Source: a virus
Taxonomy: Duplodnaviria > Caudoviricetes
IMG/VR virus record: IMGVR_UViG_3300042988_001200
Direction: 5' to 3' (one strand)
DNA: 64,000 nucleotides
Under the pieces are notes generated by a model, which was given only the letters and a program-made list of their open reading frames with translations, did not search any database and was not told the origin of the DNA. This document shows, piece by piece, positions 1,058 through 58,322 of the stretch; the stretch's first letter is position 1, and every line of letters begins with the position of its first letter. The translations under genes were made by a program, and so were the position numbers.

Positions 1058-2461
1058 TTATTGATTTAGGTTTAATAAGGAACCTTTGTTATTAACTACA
1101 TCCTTAGCCCTTTTTCCAATAGGACTATTATAGAATTCTAATAGTTTCTTATTAACCTCTTTAGAAGTAGGGTCTACTAGATTAAATTTAGTAGCAACTA
1201 GTCTAATATAAAGAACTGTATACTTAGACCCTACTTCAATAGCTCTAGGATGTAAATCTTTATTACCTTCTAGACCCTGTTCAAAACAAATGATTGGTAC
1301 AAGTAGAGCCTTAGTAAGAATCTCCTGAGTATCAATTATAGCTTGAATTCTATAAAAGAGACTGTAAAGAGTTCCTAAATCTTTAATATTACTTAATAGT
1401 TTAAGAACCTTCTTCTCATCTCCACATAAGAACTCTTCTAATGGAGGGAGTTTACAAATCTTAGTTATATGAGAACTAAACATTTGAGTAGTAAAAGTAC
1501 CTAATCTACCTTCTACACTCTTAAAACACTTCTCAATATCTCCATTACAGTGAGTGATTAACTGACTAACCTTCTCCCAGCTTCTAGGGGTTGGGAAACA
1601 ATTAGATTCACGAGTATCAAAGGGATAACCCTCTTCTTTACCATGAATATGATTAGGGTTAGCCATTAAGAAACTAATAACTGTATCATGCCAATTATGC
1701 TCTGTAGCATAATCAATGACACTAGAGGTTCTACATTCTAGACTAAAATGAGTGACCCTATCTTTAATAGCAGCACTATTCTGATGAGTATTAGGGACAT
1801 CATGCTCTACTAAGTTAGCTGCTGCCCACACTACCCATCCTGGTTTAAGCTCATATTCACCAATTCTACGTTCTTGTAATAACTGTTGAATAGCTGCTTG
1901 AGTATCATAAGTAGCATTAAACAACTCATCAAAGAATAGAATACCCTCCTCTTTATCTAGGTTTAGTAGGTTTCTAATAGATTTATTAGTGTTTAATTCT
2001 AACCAAACACCTAAATCTAATTCCTTAATATTAGTAAGAAGTGTGTTAATAACTGTAGAAGAGCCTTCTTTTAATACTTGTAAAGGTTCAATCTGTTCAA
2101 TTGATTGAAGTAAAAGTTCCTTTATTGGAGTGTTAGTAACCTTATTAGCTAACTCAATAATGAACTTTTTACAGTTGGATAAAGCTAGAGATTTGTTCTC
2201 TTGAAGGGGTAGGGAGTTAGGAGGACACCATTCTACAGCTCCATCTTTAATAGTAGGAATGCCTCTAAGGTCTAGAGCATCTACCTGAGAGAGAATGAAT
2301 ACTTGTAAAGATATGCCCTTAGATAATGCAAAATCACTAATAATAGTAGTTTTACCAATACCAACTGGACCAGTAATTAAGATAGTTTCCTTTAATTGCC
2401 ATAACAATTCTAGTTGTTTCTTTAGCTCTTCAACACTGATTTTAGTGATATTGTTATCCAT
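1058..2461 (-). CDS. MoxR-like AAA+ ATPase
   Basis: Walker A GPVGIGKT, Walker B ILFFDE, LLQERRIG, AAAN, PTPRSW; paired with VWA gene. Confidence 0.85.
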   Translation of the reverse strand: MDNNITKISVEELKKQLELLWQLKETILITGPVGIGKTTIISDFALSKGISLQVFILSQVDALDLRGIPTIKDGAVEWCPPNSLPLQENKSLALSNCKKFIIELANKVTNTPIKELLLQSIEQIEPLQVLKEGSSTVINTLLTNIKELDLGVWLELNTNKSIRNLLNLDKEEGILFFDELFNATYDTQAAIQQLLQERRIGEYELKPGWVVWAAANLVEHDVPNTHQNSAAIKDRVTHFSLECRTSSVIDYATEHNWHDTVISFLMANPNHIHGKEEGYPFDTRESNCFPTPRSWEKVSQLITHCNGDIEKCFKSVEGRLGTFTTQMFSSHITKICKLPPLEEFLCGDEKKVLKLLSNIKDLGTLYSLFYRIQAIIDTQEILTKALLVPIICFEQGLEGNKDLHPRAIEVGSKYTVLYIRLVATKFNLVDPTSKEVNKKLLEFYNSPIGKRAKDVVNNKGSLLNLNQ

Positions 2462-42443: not shown

Positions 42444-42872
42444 CTAAACTCCTAGTTTACAGATAATAGAGGAAGGAATCTGGTAATTAATAAGAGTCTT
42501 TACAGTATTCCAATTACCCCCTCCTAGACCACAACCTATTTTATAAGGGATATAAACTTTAAGATTTAACTCTTGGGCTATTTCATTAACTAACCCTAAT
42601 CCTTTAGATAGAGCTTTATAGTCTGTATGTATCCCTGTATTACCATAGGTATTTTGCCCAATTAGAGATACTATTACTAGGCTCTCTATTCTAGTAGTAA
42701 TAATATCTCCCATTTCTAGATTACCTACTTGTGATTTATAATCTATTTCTACTTGAGGATATTTAGTTTTAATGGATAAAGCTAGACCTTTACCCATTAC
42801 TCCTTGTTTATTAACCTGATGGACGATGATTCCTTCTTTAATGTCTAAGATATTCTTCTCTATGATTTCCAT
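42444..42872 (-). CDS. Macrodomain protein (ADP-ribose processing)
   Basis: NIL...IVHQVN..GVMGKGLA..IK.KYP...PYKIGCGLGGGNW. Confidence 0.88.
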   Translation of the reverse strand: MEIIEKNILDIKEGIIVHQVNKQGVMGKGLALSIKTKYPQVEIDYKSQVGNLEMGDIITTRIESLVIVSLIGQNTYGNTGIHTDYKALSKGLGLVNEIAQELNLKVYIPYKIGCGLGGGNWNTVKTLINYQIPSSIICKLGV

Positions 42873-43204
42873 TAAAGACCTTTTATTAATTGGATATAAC
42901 CTTTATTTAATTGAATATAGTTGTTTAGAATTGTATTTAGTAACTCTATAAGTTGCTCTTTAGAGGCTCTATCTATACAACTTTCAAAGGTTTCTTTTAT
43001 ATCTTTATCTTCAGTATTCTCATAGAATTTACCTATACTCTTAACAAAGTATATTATCTTTAGCTTCCTATTCTCTCTATAATAGTTCTCTAAAGTCTCA
43101 ATTACTAATTGTTTTAAATCCTCTCTATTAAGATTTCTGGCCTTTAAATTATATGAAGCAATCTTAAACTGCTCTTCTAAAGTGAGATTTAAGGTAGATT
43201 CCAT
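42872..43204 (-). CDS. nblA: NblA-like phycobilisome degradation adaptor, tandem two-unit fusion
   Basis: Unit 1 LTLEEQFKIASY...LNREDLKQLVI; unit 2 F...IDRASKEQLIELL..I..YIQLIKG. Confidence 0.7.
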   Translation of the reverse strand: MESTLNLTLEEQFKIASYNLKARNLNREDLKQLVIETLENYYRENRKLKIIYFVKSIGKFYENTEDKDIKETFESCIDRASKEQLIELLNTILNNYIQLNKGYIQLIKGL

Positions 43205-47354: not shown

Positions 47355-47927
47355 TTATGGGTTTTTACATGTTGAAATAAAGAACTTGGGAGATACTTCT
47401 CTTGTTAACCATACGGTTTTAGGCTTTGTCTCCCAAAATAATAACCCCTCCTCTTGCATTAATTTACTGTTAATACTAACTATATAACTAGGTAAATTAA
47501 CTTTTCTACCATTTCTATCTCCTATTTGTCTGGCTGATTCTCTCTTAGTAGAAAGGTGAACTAGATATCTGGATATAGGTAATATACCTTTTTCTTTTAT
47601 ATCTTTAACTCTATCTTCGGTTAATCCGTGATATAAAATAGGGGGTGGAGTTTTAGGTTTATCTAATATTGGATAAGGAAAACTATGACCATAACAAGCT
47701 CTAATAATAGTGTTATTCCTTTCAAATCTCTTATTATTCTTAATGAAACTGGTTATATCCTCACTAGTTATATCTTCTAAACCTATAATCTCATTAATTA
47801 ATTTAGTAACTTCTTGTACATTAAACCACCCTCCCTCATTAGTTTTATTACCACAGTGTCTTAATATATAACATAAAGATTTAGATAACTTAGTTAATTT
47901 AGTTTTAGTAGCATCTTTAATTGTCAT
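47355..47927 (-). CDS. kptA: RNA 2'-phosphotransferase (Tpt1/KptA)
   Basis: SKSLCYILRH, KRFE, IRACYGHS, LYHG, R.LVHLS, VWLT..V.P. Confidence 0.9.
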   Translation of the reverse strand: MTIKDATKTKLTKLSKSLCYILRHCGNKTNEGGWFNVQEVTKLINEIIGLEDITSEDITSFIKNNKRFERNNTIIRACYGHSFPYPILDKPKTPPPILYHGLTEDRVKDIKEKGILPISRYLVHLSTKRESARQIGDRNGRKVNLPSYIVSINSKLMQEEGLLFWETKPKTVWLTREVSPKFFISTCKNP

Positions 47928-50856: not shown

Positions 50857-53415
50857 TTAAGTCTCTAATTGTTTACATCTAGAACAGAGTTTAGTAGATT
50901 GATTATTAACAATAGTCTCATATAAATCCACCTTATTCCAACATCTAGGACATTTATTCTTCTCGCTTAAGGAGATTGAAAGTTCATTAATAGAGATAGA
51001 AAATAACAATTCACTTACTCCTAGATAGCAACTGATAAGTTCTTTAGAGAGGTTATCTAGAGATAAAGTCTGTACTAAATCAATAGGGAACTCTACCTTT
51101 AAATCTAGTTTAGACTTAGCCTCTTTATTAGTTTTATACCTTTCAAAGGTAAGATTCACTTCATCTCTAGTGGGGTTAAGAGTATTAAAATCATAGACTT
51201 GTTCTAGAAGATTAAATTCTACAGGGTTCTCTAGAAGGTTAGAGTCTAGATAAATACTAGTTTCATTTACTAGACTAGGACAAATGGGTTCTAATACTTT
51301 AATAAAACCCTGGAGTAAATAGAAAAGAACATATTGACATCCTACCCTTTCATTACTATTAATGCCATCAATATATAATCTATCCTTAGAAAGATTACTA
51401 TAAGAAGACATAATCCTCTTTAATTCTTGTATTGAATTGATAACTAAATGAAAGTTATAGTAGTTATACTCCTCATTACAGGACTTTAATTCTTCATTAA
51501 ACTGTTGAATAATGAAGTTATCTAGAGGAGTATAGAAACTAGAAGGATAATTAGAAGGTTTAAAGTCTTTAATATTACCCAGAATGAATTTAATAATGTT
51601 CCTAAAGTCATTATATAGAGACACCATTTGAGTTTCTACTGTCTCTGATAAGATAATATCTTTAGTGAAGTCTTGGTTTAGAACTAGTAATCTTAAGATA
51701 TCAGAGGAATAAGTCTTTAATAAATCTAGGGGATTAGTAACATTACCCTTAGATTTACTCATCTTATTACCCCTTTCATCTAGAGTAAATCCATGTACTA
51801 GTAGTTTAGAGAAGGGAATCTGTTCCTTTAGTGCATAGGTGATAATTAAAGATGATTGGAACCATCCTCTATATTGGTCTACTCCTTCAATAAAGATAGT
51901 TTCTAATGGAATAGATTCCTCTTTAGTTTGATATAAATAGACACATCCACTGTCAAACCATACATCTAAGACATCCTCTCCCTTATGACAATGGGGAATA
52001 TTAGTAAACTCTTCTACTGGTAAATCCCACCATAGGTCCATATAATCCTCTACTAAGTCTTTATACTCATTAATCTTAGATAGAAAACTATCAATAACCA
52101 TATGGACTTTACCCTTACTATCAATGACATAAGGAATGGGAATACCCCACTTCCTTTGTCTAGAAATACACCATTCCTCTCTAGAAGAGATAGTGTTGGA
52201 TAGAGCTTTCTTAGCTTGTAAAGGATGAAACTCTACATTCTCTAACTCTTTAATTACAGATTCCTTAATTGAATTGATATCTAAGAACCATTGAGCTGTG
52301 GGTCTAATGTATACAGGATTCTCGGTTCTCTCATCAAAGAAGGTTTTAATTACTTGTTTAGAACAATGCAAAATAGAATCATTATTAAGGATAATAAACT
52401 CTGATAATTCCTCTGGAGTATATTTAAAGTCTTCATATTCAATATAACCCCCTGTTTTATGGAATAAATCCTTTACTTCTAGACCATTAACTAAGCCTAA
52501 ATTATAATCATCAAACCCATGAGAGGGGTTAATATGAACAATACTTGTACCTACAGAGTCTGTAACTAGACTATTAGCCTCAATAACCTTACAAATATCT
52601 CCATTTAAATTAGTATAAGTATGGTATTTAGATAATAGTTCTGACCCCTTAACCTTCTCTAAAAGAATAGAATCCCCAAATAAATTATTAAATTCCTCAT
52701 AGAATTTAATATTAGAGATGTAATGAAGGTTCCCTCTAGAGTAAATATAATACTCAATCTCAGAGTTAATAGCTAGAGCTTTATTTCCTAATAAAGTCCA
52801 AGGAGTAGTAGTCCAAGCAATATAATAGATATTATCATTGGCTGTACTATTAACTTTGAACTTTACATATGCAGTATTAACTTCTACTTCCTTATAGATA
52901 ATCTCTGACTCAGCTAGTGCTGTCCTATTCTTAATACTCCAATAAGTAGGCTTATTACCTCTGTAGATTAATTCTTTATTGTATAACTCTTGGAGAATAC
53001 TTAGTTCATATAACTGGAACTCATTATCTAAAGTTCTATAAGTATTACTATAGTTAATCCCTAGTTTAGTTAAGGATTCCTTATGCTGCTCTACAGTTTT
53101 TAAAGCTAGTTGTCTACAGTTATTTCTAGTCTCTAAAGGATTAGCACTCCTCTTTACCTTTAACTCAATGGGTAATCCATGACAATCCCATCCAGCAATA
53201 AACTCTTTATATAAACTGTCCTGACCATTCCTTCTATTAATTACATCCTTAATAGTTTTATTAAGAAGATGACCCATATGAAGATTACCATTAGCATATG
53301 GGGGTCCATCAATGATTAATACAGACCCCTTTTTATTAGATTGGATAGAAGGGTTAAAATCATGCCCTTTATAATAACTAGGAAACTGAGTTTCTGGTTT
53401 TAGAATATTAAACAT
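50857..53415 (-). CDS. ileS: Isoleucyl-tRNA synthetase (type 1)
   Basis: DGPPYANG.LHMGH, GWDCHGLPIE, WTTTPWTL, WCISRQRKWG, DVWFDSG, EGVDQYRGWFQSS, KMSKS, C-terminal CPRCW...CSRC. Confidence 0.96.
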   Translation of the reverse strand: MFNILKPETQFPSYYKGHDFNPSIQSNKKGSVLIIDGPPYANGNLHMGHLLNKTIKDVINRRNGQDSLYKEFIAGWDCHGLPIELKVKRSANPLETRNNCRQLALKTVEQHKESLTKLGINYSNTYRTLDNEFQLYELSILQELYNKELIYRGNKPTYWSIKNRTALAESEIIYKEVEVNTAYVKFKVNSTANDNIYYIAWTTTPWTLLGNKALAINSEIEYYIYSRGNLHYISNIKFYEEFNNLFGDSILLEKVKGSELLSKYHTYTNLNGDICKVIEANSLVTDSVGTSIVHINPSHGFDDYNLGLVNGLEVKDLFHKTGGYIEYEDFKYTPEELSEFIILNNDSILHCSKQVIKTFFDERTENPVYIRPTAQWFLDINSIKESVIKELENVEFHPLQAKKALSNTISSREEWCISRQRKWGIPIPYVIDSKGKVHMVIDSFLSKINEYKDLVEDYMDLWWDLPVEEFTNIPHCHKGEDVLDVWFDSGCVYLYQTKEESIPLETIFIEGVDQYRGWFQSSLIITYALKEQIPFSKLLVHGFTLDERGNKMSKSKGNVTNPLDLLKTYSSDILRLLVLNQDFTKDIILSETVETQMVSLYNDFRNIIKFILGNIKDFKPSNYPSSFYTPLDNFIIQQFNEELKSCNEEYNYYNFHLVINSIQELKRIMSSYSNLSKDRLYIDGINSNERVGCQYVLFYLLQGFIKVLEPICPSLVNETSIYLDSNLLENPVEFNLLEQVYDFNTLNPTRDEVNLTFERYKTNKEAKSKLDLKVEFPIDLVQTLSLDNLSKELISCYLGVSELLFSISINELSISLSEKNKCPRCWNKVDLYETIVNNQSTKLCSRCKQLET

Positions 53416-53435
53416 CTATTTACCTCTAGATTAAT

Positions 53436-53930
53436 ATGCTTAACTCTCCCCCTCTTTATATACCCTATAAGGATATAATCATAGTCCAAAGAGAGGATTA
53501 TTACATTAATAGTTCTCCAGTTCTCCGTTTATTTAATAAAACATATGCCTCCTGGATTAAAACTAAGGACTACTCTTCCTATATAGAAGCTCTATCTTCT
53601 CTTATAGGTATAACTTCTTTATCTATACCCTCTAGTGAAGGACTCTGGATTCATCCTTGTCTATTTACTAAACTAGCTAAATGGCTATCACCCGCCTTTG
53701 AAGTGTTTATAGAGACTTCTATCCTATATCCCTTTAATAACATTAACTCTGTATATACTCTTAACTCTATATCCCAAGTAAACATCCTTATGGATTCCCT
53801 TAATGAAGATATAAGATTAAGTGTAAAGGATAAGGTTAGATATAAGTTAAAAGCTATAGAAAAGGTCTATCCTCATCTAACTAGAGCTATAGAATATCTA
53901 GAAAAGGAGTTTAGCTCTAATCTAACCTAA
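53436..53930 (+). CDS. KilA-N domain DNA-binding protein
   Basis: YINSS...F.K...W...GLWIHP.L...LAKWLSP.F. Confidence 0.85.
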   Translation: MLNSPPLYIPYKDIIIVQREDYYINSSPVLRLFNKTYASWIKTKDYSSYIEALSSLIGITSLSIPSSEGLWIHPCLFTKLAKWLSPAFEVFIETSILYPFNNINSVYTLNSISQVNILMDSLNEDIRLSVKDKVRYKLKAIEKVYPHLTRAIEYLEKEFSSNLT

Positions 53931-54484
53931 CTCCTTTTATAAATATAAACCATATCATATACACCACCCCATGTAGGTATAGATAATTCCTTATATAAGG
54001 ACCATTCTTTCTCTAGTAACTTAAAGAGGTTGTCCTCTCCTGTACAACCTCCGTTAGACTCTCCTATATAAATAAGAGTATCTCCTTTATAGTTCTTTAA
54101 AGAGTTATATGCCATTAGATTGTCATAAGGAGGCCAACATAGAAATAAAGTTCTATCATAATGCTGGGTTAATACTTCTTCCTCCCCTATATGAACCTCA
54201 TACCACTTACACTGGGATTGACTATTATAGTGAGGAGCTTTATCATAAGCAATGATATCCCCACCCATCTGGTCTATAAGATAACTCCAATAGCCTCCTC
54301 CAGCCCCCATTTCTACTAGAGGACTATATTCTAGTAATTCCTGAATAACCTCTTCTGTAGGTATAGCCCAGGAGTAAGAGAGAACGTATTCCTGTCTTTT
54401 ATTAAAGGACATGAAGCTATTAGTTATGGGAAATAACTTCTCTTCCTTTAATTTATCTAAGTATGGATTTAACAAATAATTCAC
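53927..54484 (-). CDS. Class I SAM-dependent methyltransferase-like protein
   Basis: SWAIP, LVEMGAGGGYW, IIAYD, LFLCWPP, YIGE. Confidence 0.7.
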   Translation of the reverse strand: MNYLLNPYLDKLKEEKLFPITNSFMSFNKRQEYVLSYSWAIPTEEVIQELLEYSPLVEMGAGGGYWSYLIDQMGGDIIAYDKAPHYNSQSQCKWYEVHIGEEEVLTQHYDRTLFLCWPPYDNLMAYNSLKNYKGDTLIYIGESNGGCTGEDNLFKLLEKEWSLYKELSIPTWGGVYDMVYIYKRS

Positions 54485-56997: not shown

Positions 56998-57940
56998 TAA
57001 TTCTTCTATATAAGTATTTACTCTTATCTGGCTCTTCTGGATTTACAATTACAAAGTTATTACTTTTAGAAATATGCTCATAGCCTAGAAAATAGTTGCT
57101 TTTATCGTAGGGATAACTATGGTTTATATAGTCTATAACCTCCCAATCTTTTAGTAGTAAAGACTGAGAACTATGAATTAAATAGTCTGTATCAAAGTCT
57201 TTATAGATTTCTTGTATAACTTTATGAGAAAATATAACCTTAGTCTTACTATTAGTAATGACTATTTCTCCTATTATTCTTTCCTTAAGACTGTAATTAT
57301 ATCTATTACTCTTTGAAGTTTCATATAATAGAGTATTACAAAAAGGTACAAACTTAAATATACTCTTTAAACCAGACTCCTTCTTTTTTATTAAATTAAT
57401 ATTACTACTATGCAATAAATCTATTAGATTCTCATGGGATTTATCTTCTAATTTTATAAAAGGATAATCTAACCTAACTAACTTATTAACTAAATCCTCT
57501 TCTTTTACATATATAGATAAAGATTTATCTTTATTCTTAAAGATATAAAGATTTATATTACTTAGTTTCCTATCAGAATAAGTTATAATTCTAGCCTTTC
57601 CATTCTCTAGATTATGATTTTCATAGTCTATACCTATCTTATAATTAATACTATCTCTTGTATAAATTAAACTTTCATAGGTGTCTATAATAGTTTCACT
57701 TATTCTTTTAATGGTCTTAAAGCCTACTATATTAACATTTCCTAAATGATTTAATCTAGAACTATACTCTTCTTTATATCTATTAAATAGATTAATAGTA
57801 TTATCTTCTATAGTTTTGTAACCTTCCCATTTTGAATCCTTATCCTTTATATCTATATCTGGGTGTATAGGAGCAAAGTATACAAATAAATCATCAATTC
57901 TTATTACAACTATAGGAATACAATATTTAAATCCACTCAT
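56987..57940 (-). CDS. NPEE-motif paralog family member
   Basis: IVNPEEPDKSKYLY. Confidence 0.7.
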   Translation of the reverse strand: MSGFKYCIPIVVIRIDDLFVYFAPIHPDIDIKDKDSKWEGYKTIEDNTINLFNRYKEEYSSRLNHLGNVNIVGFKTIKRISETIIDTYESLIYTRDSINYKIGIDYENHNLENGKARIITYSDRKLSNINLYIFKNKDKSLSIYVKEEDLVNKLVRLDYPFIKLEDKSHENLIDLLHSSNINLIKKKESGLKSIFKFVPFCNTLLYETSKSNRYNYSLKERIIGEIVITNSKTKVIFSHKVIQEIYKDFDTDYLIHSSQSLLLKDWEVIDYINHSYPYDKSNYFLGYEHISKSNNFVIVNPEEPDKSKYLYRRIIDE

Positions 57941-58322
57941 GTTTAACTTTTTTCCATCGAAAGAATGTTACAACCTCACCCTCATCTATTGATAAAGATA
58001 CAGAGTTAAACTCCTGTTCCTCTATCTCTAAGTAGTAATCCCAGAAGATGTAATCCTTTAGTTGCTTAGTAGAAACAGAGGGTTTAGACTCATGGGAGTA
58101 ACCTAAATAGATTAATCTAGAGGGGTTAATTAATAGATTTAACTCCTCTTTTAACCCTCTAATAACTGCTTCTTCTGGAGTTTCATTATGTTCGATAGTC
58201 TCTGAGATGTTAGGAAACCTTCTATATCTGAACTTATTAGTGGACTTAACTAACTGTTTGGTTTGACAAAGAAGATTATCTTGGAACCTAACTTGAATTC
58301 TTACTACTTTATGAATGCTCAT
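57927..58322 (-). CDS. Nudix hydrolase-like protein
   Basis: SETIEHNETPEEAVIRGLKEELNL resembles a Nudix box. Confidence 0.6.
   Translation of the reverse strand: MSIHKVVRIQVRFQDNLLCQTKQLVKSTNKFRYRRFPNISETIEHNETPEEAVIRGLKEELNLLINPSRLIYLGYSHESKPSVSTKQLKDYIFWDYYLEIEEQEFNSVSLSIDEGEVVTFFRWKKVKHEWI

Follow-up and report, generated by a model that had tools for sequence, protein, structure and literature searches.

Why would a phage keep its own isoleucyl-tRNA synthetase (IleRS), and which tRNA would such an enzyme serve? This question is raised by a gene located at 50857..53415 on the minus strand of the window, by which we mean the whole 64,000-nucleotide stretch of DNA that was analysed, an AT-rich phage sequence of uniform GC content.

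The synthetase gene and its genome

The open reading frame contains no internal stop and, judged by Pfam and NCBIfam profiles and by structure matches, is predicted to encode an intact phage type-1 IleRS of 852 amino acids (ileS). The sequence-only reading had claimed the class I motifs, the TTTPWT element of the editing domain and a C-terminal zinc finger, and alignment located all of them. The HIGH motif, HMGH (residues 46-49; 53269..53280, minus strand as for all motifs that follow), is identical in Staphylococcus aureus IleRS1 and belongs to a GPPYANG-HMGH block in the N-terminal part, and KMSKS occupies residues 551-555 (51751..51765); with WDxHG and EGxDQxRGW the class I set is complete. 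The editing motif WTTTPWT lies at residues 201-207, of which TTTPWT (202-207; 52795..52812) is intact in the alignment. The zinc-binding domain, a CxxC..CxxC finger spanning residues 822-847 (C822/C825/C844/C847; 50875..50952), includes the wobble-stacking residue W826, the equivalent of Escherichia coli W905 (PMC3575796). The designation "full-length" in that reading holds for the uninterrupted frame and the motifs; the N-terminus is about 15-25 residues shorter than in cellular IleRS1, and what remains of it is divergent.

Pfam tRNA-synt_1 (E=9e-96) and Anticodon_1 both matched the protein. The top NCBIfam match was TIGR00392 ileS, whose score of 580.5 bits falls just short of the cut-off (621.4); valS scored 302. 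The profiles for IleRS2 of the MupA/MupB type reached 260 and 222 bits against a cut-off of 1900, and the zinc domain is of type 1. The nearest solved structures are the IleRS1 enzymes of S. aureus and P. megaterium. An AlphaFold (AF2) model, with a mean pLDDT of 76 and low confidence at residues 543-588, gave IleRS1 as its top fold match (TM ~0.78; Foldseek 0.76-0.79) and was nearer to IleRS1 than to IleRS2, ValRS or LeuRS. The alteration previously seen in the second editing motif, GTSIVHINPSHGFDD (residues 289-303; 52507..52551), proved real when set against 218 homologs: the G-to-S change replaces a Gly present in 215/218 and occurs in this phage only, and the AP-to-NP change replaces an Ala present in 216/218 and is common to both phages described below. 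The Thr-rich editing motif, His294 and Asp303 are all retained. Because a near-invariant Gly and Ala are altered, editing capacity is uncertain.

The source is a cyanophage of 204 kb, related to Ma-LMM01. Its helicase best matches those of Microcoleus phage My-WqHQDG and Microcystis phage Ma-LMM01, and an NblA gene (42872-43204, minus strand) and a CP12 gene just beyond the window (L047:13758-13943) support a cyanobacterial host. The window dinucleotides are strongly biased (CG 0.12, GC 0.63, CA/TG 0.66, TA 1.22), CGC codons are absent, and a promoter scan gave a result at chance level. The IleRS protein and the same neighbours recur in independent assemblies, in contigs of up to 204,120 bp. 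One close homolog alone was found, P0002 of a sister phage (63-65% identical); everything else among 1.8 billion representatives was below 40%, identity to any cellular IleRS was at most about 35%, and scans of IMG/VR, JGI and GTDB returned no close member of the clade. Catalytic motifs are invariant between the two phage products, which are 65% identical. The gene divergent to ileS, encoding a KilA-N protein (53436..53930, plus strand; ATA 12/19), is the same neighbour in the sister phage and serves as a synteny marker. Chimerism with host DNA, which had been raised as a concern, is refuted by this shared KilA-N neighbour and by the recurrence of the same neighbours in independent assemblies; GC and dinucleotides are likewise genome-like. 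The phylogenetic comparison with cyanobacterial IleRS suggested earlier was answered in part, by a quick tree that left the phage pair outside a cyanobacterial clade with 100% support, on a long branch of 1.44 substitutions per site.

Avoidance of AUA in ileS

The earlier impression that ATA is very common in this DNA was borne out by a codon count: it accounts for 1062 of the 2100 Ile codons in the window (51%), is the third commonest codon and makes up about 5.5% of all codons. The excess is partly compositional, in that every NTG codon is depleted relative to NTA. Met amounts to only 0.7% in the window, compared with 1.9-2.7% in related cyanophages. A recoding of ATA as Met was ruled out, as ATA columns align with I/V/L in the way that ATT and ATC columns do.

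What the sequence-only reading overlooked is that ileS itself holds a single ATA, that of Ile662 (51430..51432, minus strand), beside 54 ATT and 17 ATC codons. In the rest of the window 52% of Ile codons are ATA, as compared with 1/72 here (p=2e-21). The other codon families of ileS (GTA, CTA, TTA, AGA etc.) are close to genome values, and the same DNA contains ATA 65 times out of frame. Among the genes of the window, none deviates more strongly in codon or residue use. In the sister phage, ileS has 8/63 ATA against a background of 58%, and its first 388 codons are free of ATA. Avoidance of AUA in this gene is a strong, replicated and controlled signal.

The four-fold sites of the two phage ileS genes are only 52% identical. 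Lineage-specific Ile codons include ATA in 1/30 and 2/21 cases, and non-ancestral columns in 0/59. A relic of ancestral host codons was ruled out, since the four-fold sites have diverged and newly gained Ile codons also avoid ATA; the avoidance is under continuing selection. Other genes of translation or RNA repair behave differently. The ArgRS gene of the sister phage (L139:2122-3834), which is ameliorated, has 43/64 ATA and shows no avoidance. The sister CysRS gene (L139:11707-13149) is low in ATA (8/38), and many of its codon families deviate, as expected of recent acquisition. Two sister RNA ligases (L139:5548-6621 and L131:9375-10016) use ATA in 12/34 and 12/19 Ile codons and the Tpt1/KptA gene near ileS (47355-47927) in 10/19; neither this gene nor the nearby macrodomain (42444-42872, minus strand) and NUDIX (57927-58322, minus strand) genes avoid ATA significantly.

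The effect is also not a general property of ileS in Cyanobacteriota, a possibility ruled out by the lack of a difference across 28 genomes (ATA 0.110 in ileS versus 0.138 in valS plus leuS, p=0.10). Ten of these genomes cluster with named cyanobacteria, and in them ATA makes up 0-16% in ileS, valS and leuS. The ileS of Helicobacter is unbiased for ATA. S. aureus ileS contains 0/55 ATA, compared with 10/63 in valS (L156:7974-10736, a staphylococcal chromosome), so the trait is shared by some cellular ileS genes, and certain cells may be subject to the same pressure. Some GenBank records labelled as phage that carry ileS are host contigs, and one viral IleRS-like gene (L030) shows the opposite trend, being enriched in ATA (29/36 versus 33%).

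Because the sister phage repeats the effect, ArgRS does not show it, gained Ile sites avoid ATA and cyanobacterial ileS is without it, the selection is very probably tied to the job of the enzyme itself, that is, to its own product. Self-avoidance is not universal in this clade, since the sister ArgRS uses AGA freely (14/19).

Why the phage may keep the enzyme

The explanation that we favour, with a probability of roughly 45%, is that the protein is a working IleRS which the phage keeps to relieve a bottleneck in AUA decoding. ATA is rare in host-type housekeeping genes, and related phages without an IleRS match use ATA for 2.6-2.8% of codons, about half the 5.5% of this phage. In the infected cell, a small pool of AUA-reading tRNA would be recharged too slowly and would be the first to lose its charge, while tRNA-Ile(GAU) would remain charged. 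The AUA reader would most simply be the host tRNA-Ile2 with its modified C34, which should be acceptable to a zinc domain of the Trp type. Additional phage IleRS would restore the charging flux, and an ileS mRNA written in AUU and AUC would stay translatable during the very shortage that the enzyme repairs. The logic of selective charging was reportedly laid out by Elf et al. in 2003.

That charging of the GAU tRNA must persist follows from the Ile content of the protein, which is not depleted (72 residues, 8.5%, against a homolog mean of 6.2%; p=0.027 relative to the window), and a toxin that removes all Ile-tRNA is therefore disfavoured. The earlier idea of a bypass of such a toxin fits poorly with a protein that keeps 72 Ile, unlike the Ile-free phage IleRSs described below. 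Cleavage of the anticodon is disfavoured too, because the RNA-repair genes use ATA freely. A high AUA fraction does not in itself require ileS, since My-WqHQDG has ATA in 48% of its Ile codons and yet no IleRS was detected there. The suggested link between the enzyme and demand for Ile or AUA is nonetheless backed more strongly than originally stated, by the avoidance specific to ileS.

Unlikely, in our assessment, is a dedicated pair in which the phage encodes its own AUA reader, either a tRNA-Ile(UAU) or an altered CAU tRNA, that the host IleRS charges poorly and the phage IleRS switches on, so that ileS must be readable beforehand. Such a pair would neatly account for an avoidance limited to IleRS, and the enzymology is favourable: E. 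coli IleRS charges the UAU tRNA 360-fold worse than the LAU tRNA (PMC3575796), and 27 of 28 Cyanobacteriota IleRS carry Trp at the wobble site. Several other ileS phages have a tRNA-Ile(UAU). In the anticodon domain, a helix is altered in both phages (FYLD to SYSN/VFIN) and a basic residue stands two positions after W826. The phage also has a tRNA-Arg(UCU) (L042:1133-1206, about 4 kb beyond the window end; sister L003:2644-2719) that matches its own bias towards AGA, which makes up 74% of Arg codons. What speaks against the pair, however, is the residue stacked on the wobble base. Bacteria that use lysidine have Trp at this position, whereas UAU readers have Arg or Lys (PMC3575796, PMC3919564); W826 (also equivalent to S. 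aureus W890) is retained in both phages, with no Arg or Lys there, in contrast to the Arg of M. mobile and B. subtilis. A search of about 73 of the 204 kb of this genome, together with 46.9 kb from the sister, found neither a tRNA-Ile nor TilS, and Ma-LMM01 has tRNA-Tyr and tRNA-Met only.

The search for tRNAs in the full genome that had been proposed was thus carried out over about 73 of 204 kb, where it yielded tRNA-Arg(UCU), the only tRNA found in the sequenced parts examined of both phages, counting ARAGORN-confirmed matches only; a pattern search for tRNA-Ile(UAU) performed at chance level. Relaxed ARAGORN calls in the window lay mostly inside open reading frames, and none passed Rfam. 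With W826 kept and no such tRNA or TilS in these regions, the earlier suggestion that the enzyme charges a phage tRNA-Ile(UAU) appears unsupported, as it fails in its one testable feature, the wobble-site residue.

Less likely still is a role in counter-defence: a host toxin or defence would partly inhibit IleRS or strike tRNA-Ile2, the AUA reader would be the first to fail, and translation would be rescued by a phage IleRS that is divergent and insensitive. The long branch (1.44 substitutions per site) and the low identity to cellular IleRS (at most about 35%) would suit an enzyme of this kind, as would the Tpt1 and macrodomain genes nearby, the two RNA ligases and the SocA/Panacea-like protein (L131:7028-7534) of the sister, and the cognate-free synthetases elsewhere, which imply collapse of a charged-tRNA pool. 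The retention of 72 Ile (8.5%, compared with 6.2%) does not fit, nor does the unrestricted use of ATA in RNA-repair genes if tRNA-Ile2 were cleaved, and no such defence system was identified in the examined sequence.

An improbable alternative is generic tuning, by which ileS would merely be expressed early or highly and avoid a slow host codon, its product being irrelevant. Highly expressed genes in other phages do avoid ATA (1/50, 1/52), and the window holds a second ATA-poor gene by codon count (4/40), encoding a MoxR-like AAA ATPase that adjoins a DUF2201 gene (1058-2461, minus strand). However, the C-ending fraction of Tyr/Asn/Phe codons is 0.23 in ileS against a median of 0.19, while this ATPase carries the generic shift of high expression (0.36) and a probable capsid gene of another phage, likewise ATA-poor, reaches 0.76 versus 0.35. 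Since ATA-poor genes elsewhere shift these codons and ileS does not, its avoidance is not a generic effect of expression. The other codon families of ileS are also unshifted, including AGA, which is rare in the host and used freely here (16/25), and ileS is an extreme outlier in both phages while ArgRS is unaffected. An inactive relic, a non-translational protein or a host fragment is highly improbable: the score below the TIGR00392 cut-off, the shortened N-terminus, the altered editing motif and the low model confidence at 543-588 are outweighed by the same gene and neighbours in independent assemblies, sister synteny, genome-like GC and dinucleotides, conservation of all catalytic motifs and ongoing codon selection.

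Self-avoiding synthetases in other phages

A scan of viral contigs yielded 36 loci matching IleRS, a few of them probably host fragments. In 11 of the 36, from at least two lineages, the protein of 740-851 residues contains 0-4 Ile, mostly within probable upstream extensions, and in three genomes examined whole Ile is depleted more strongly in the IleRS gene than in any other (p=1e-26 to 1e-32). A 508-kb genome, IMGVR_UViG_3300049793_000366, encodes eight synthetases, many of them shortened, each of which lacks its own residue after the first 30 amino acids: IleRS (51775-54003), ThrRS (322073-323200), ND-AspRS (388279-389556), ProRS (392810-393916), ValRS (396695-398224), LysRS (409116-410324), a PheS-like protein (NF051887; 415861-416961) and TyrRS (424433-425512). 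This genome is probably more striking than the finding in the window. The 635-kb phage record LR745206.1 carries an Asp-free AspRS (336580-337944), an Ile-free IleRS (382047-384254), an Asn-free AsnRS (390522-391700), an Arg-free protein with a weak ArgRS match (391720-392898) and a Phe-free PheRS-like protein (613818-614897), and has tRNA-Ile GAU and UAU near its cognate-free synthetases. Another genome (G023) has an Asn-free enzyme whose best score is to ND-AspRS (L116:5308-6576), a Pro-free ProRS (L119:2396-3526) and an Ile-free IleRS (L038), and a Tyr-free TyrRS (L260:1241-2341) occurs in a phage (G022) whose IleRS retains Ile. In two further genomes (L022/L025; G013, G016) the IleRS is nearly Ile-free (1/851) and has Arg at the W905 position (CLRCR), with a TilS-like gene a few kilobases away. 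Near phage ileS, at L144:1471-1560, L145:1470-1562 and L142:1483-1572, lie candidate tRNA-Ile(UAU) genes that measure about 90 nt, have long variable arms and are of uncertain amino-acid identity.

Self-avoidance in these cognate-free synthetases is a real selective regime. The window ileS is outside this set, having 72 Ile and avoiding the AUA codon alone; by analogy, it looks like a codon-level version of the same rule. One could tentatively go further, to a possible yet doubtful view in which phage synthetases are, as a class, rescue enzymes that avoid their own substrate, and the codon or residue missing from each would reveal the aminoacyl-tRNA pool that is made to collapse, whether by the host or by the takeover of the phage itself; ileS would then be the member specific to a codon, pointing to a cyanobacterial defence or checkpoint on AUA decoding that has yet to be described, and the eight cognate-free synthetases the extreme form. 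In the literature searched, with subscription journals outside its coverage, we found no description of self-avoiding phage synthetases in either codon or residue form. Self-avoidance offers an answer to why phages carry synthetases that can be read from sequence and tested, namely that the enzyme has to be produced during a shortage of its own product. Such avoidance also predicts the tRNA pool that gives out in infection, and every phage genome can be scanned for it. The cognate-free enzymes (700-850 residues without Ile; Lys-, Asp-, Val- and Pro-free) are also natural models for reduced-alphabet protein design.

Phage IleRS as such is known, and the new part is the AUA self-avoidance of ileS. 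In the huge phages with synthetase genes (PMC13359090; LR745206.1), the enzyme is already a known kind; those genomes are mostly 250-630 kb and rich in tRNAs, whereas here the carrier is a 204-kb relative of Ma-LMM01 and its IleRS stands on a branch of its own. The phage enzyme resembles bacterial IleRS1 (S. aureus 1FFY, P. megaterium 8C9E/8C9F, H. pylori 8WNF; TIGR00392) in domain order, fold, HMGH/KMSKS, the editing Thr/His/Asp and the Trp zinc domain, and differs from it in its identity of about 30%, shortened N-terminus, GTS..NP motif, altered anticodon helix and avoidance of ATA against a 52% background. The M. mobile IleRS/tRNA-Ile(UAU) system (PMC3575796) and the B. subtilis U34 suppressor (PMC3919564) likewise tie IleRS to AUA decoding, but they combine Arg at the wobble site with a known UAU tRNA, whereas the phage enzyme carries Trp there, and about 73 kb of its genome revealed no tRNA of this kind. 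Finally, a parallel in which a rescue enzyme avoids the resource that it restores is offered by the cognate bias seen in enzymes of amino-acid biosynthesis (Alves and Savageau 2005, cited through PMC4209129). As described there, this bias concerns cellular pathways and is a modest bias in amino acids, whereas here it affects one codon in a phage synthetase and, in related phage synthetases, amounts to near-total absence of the residue.
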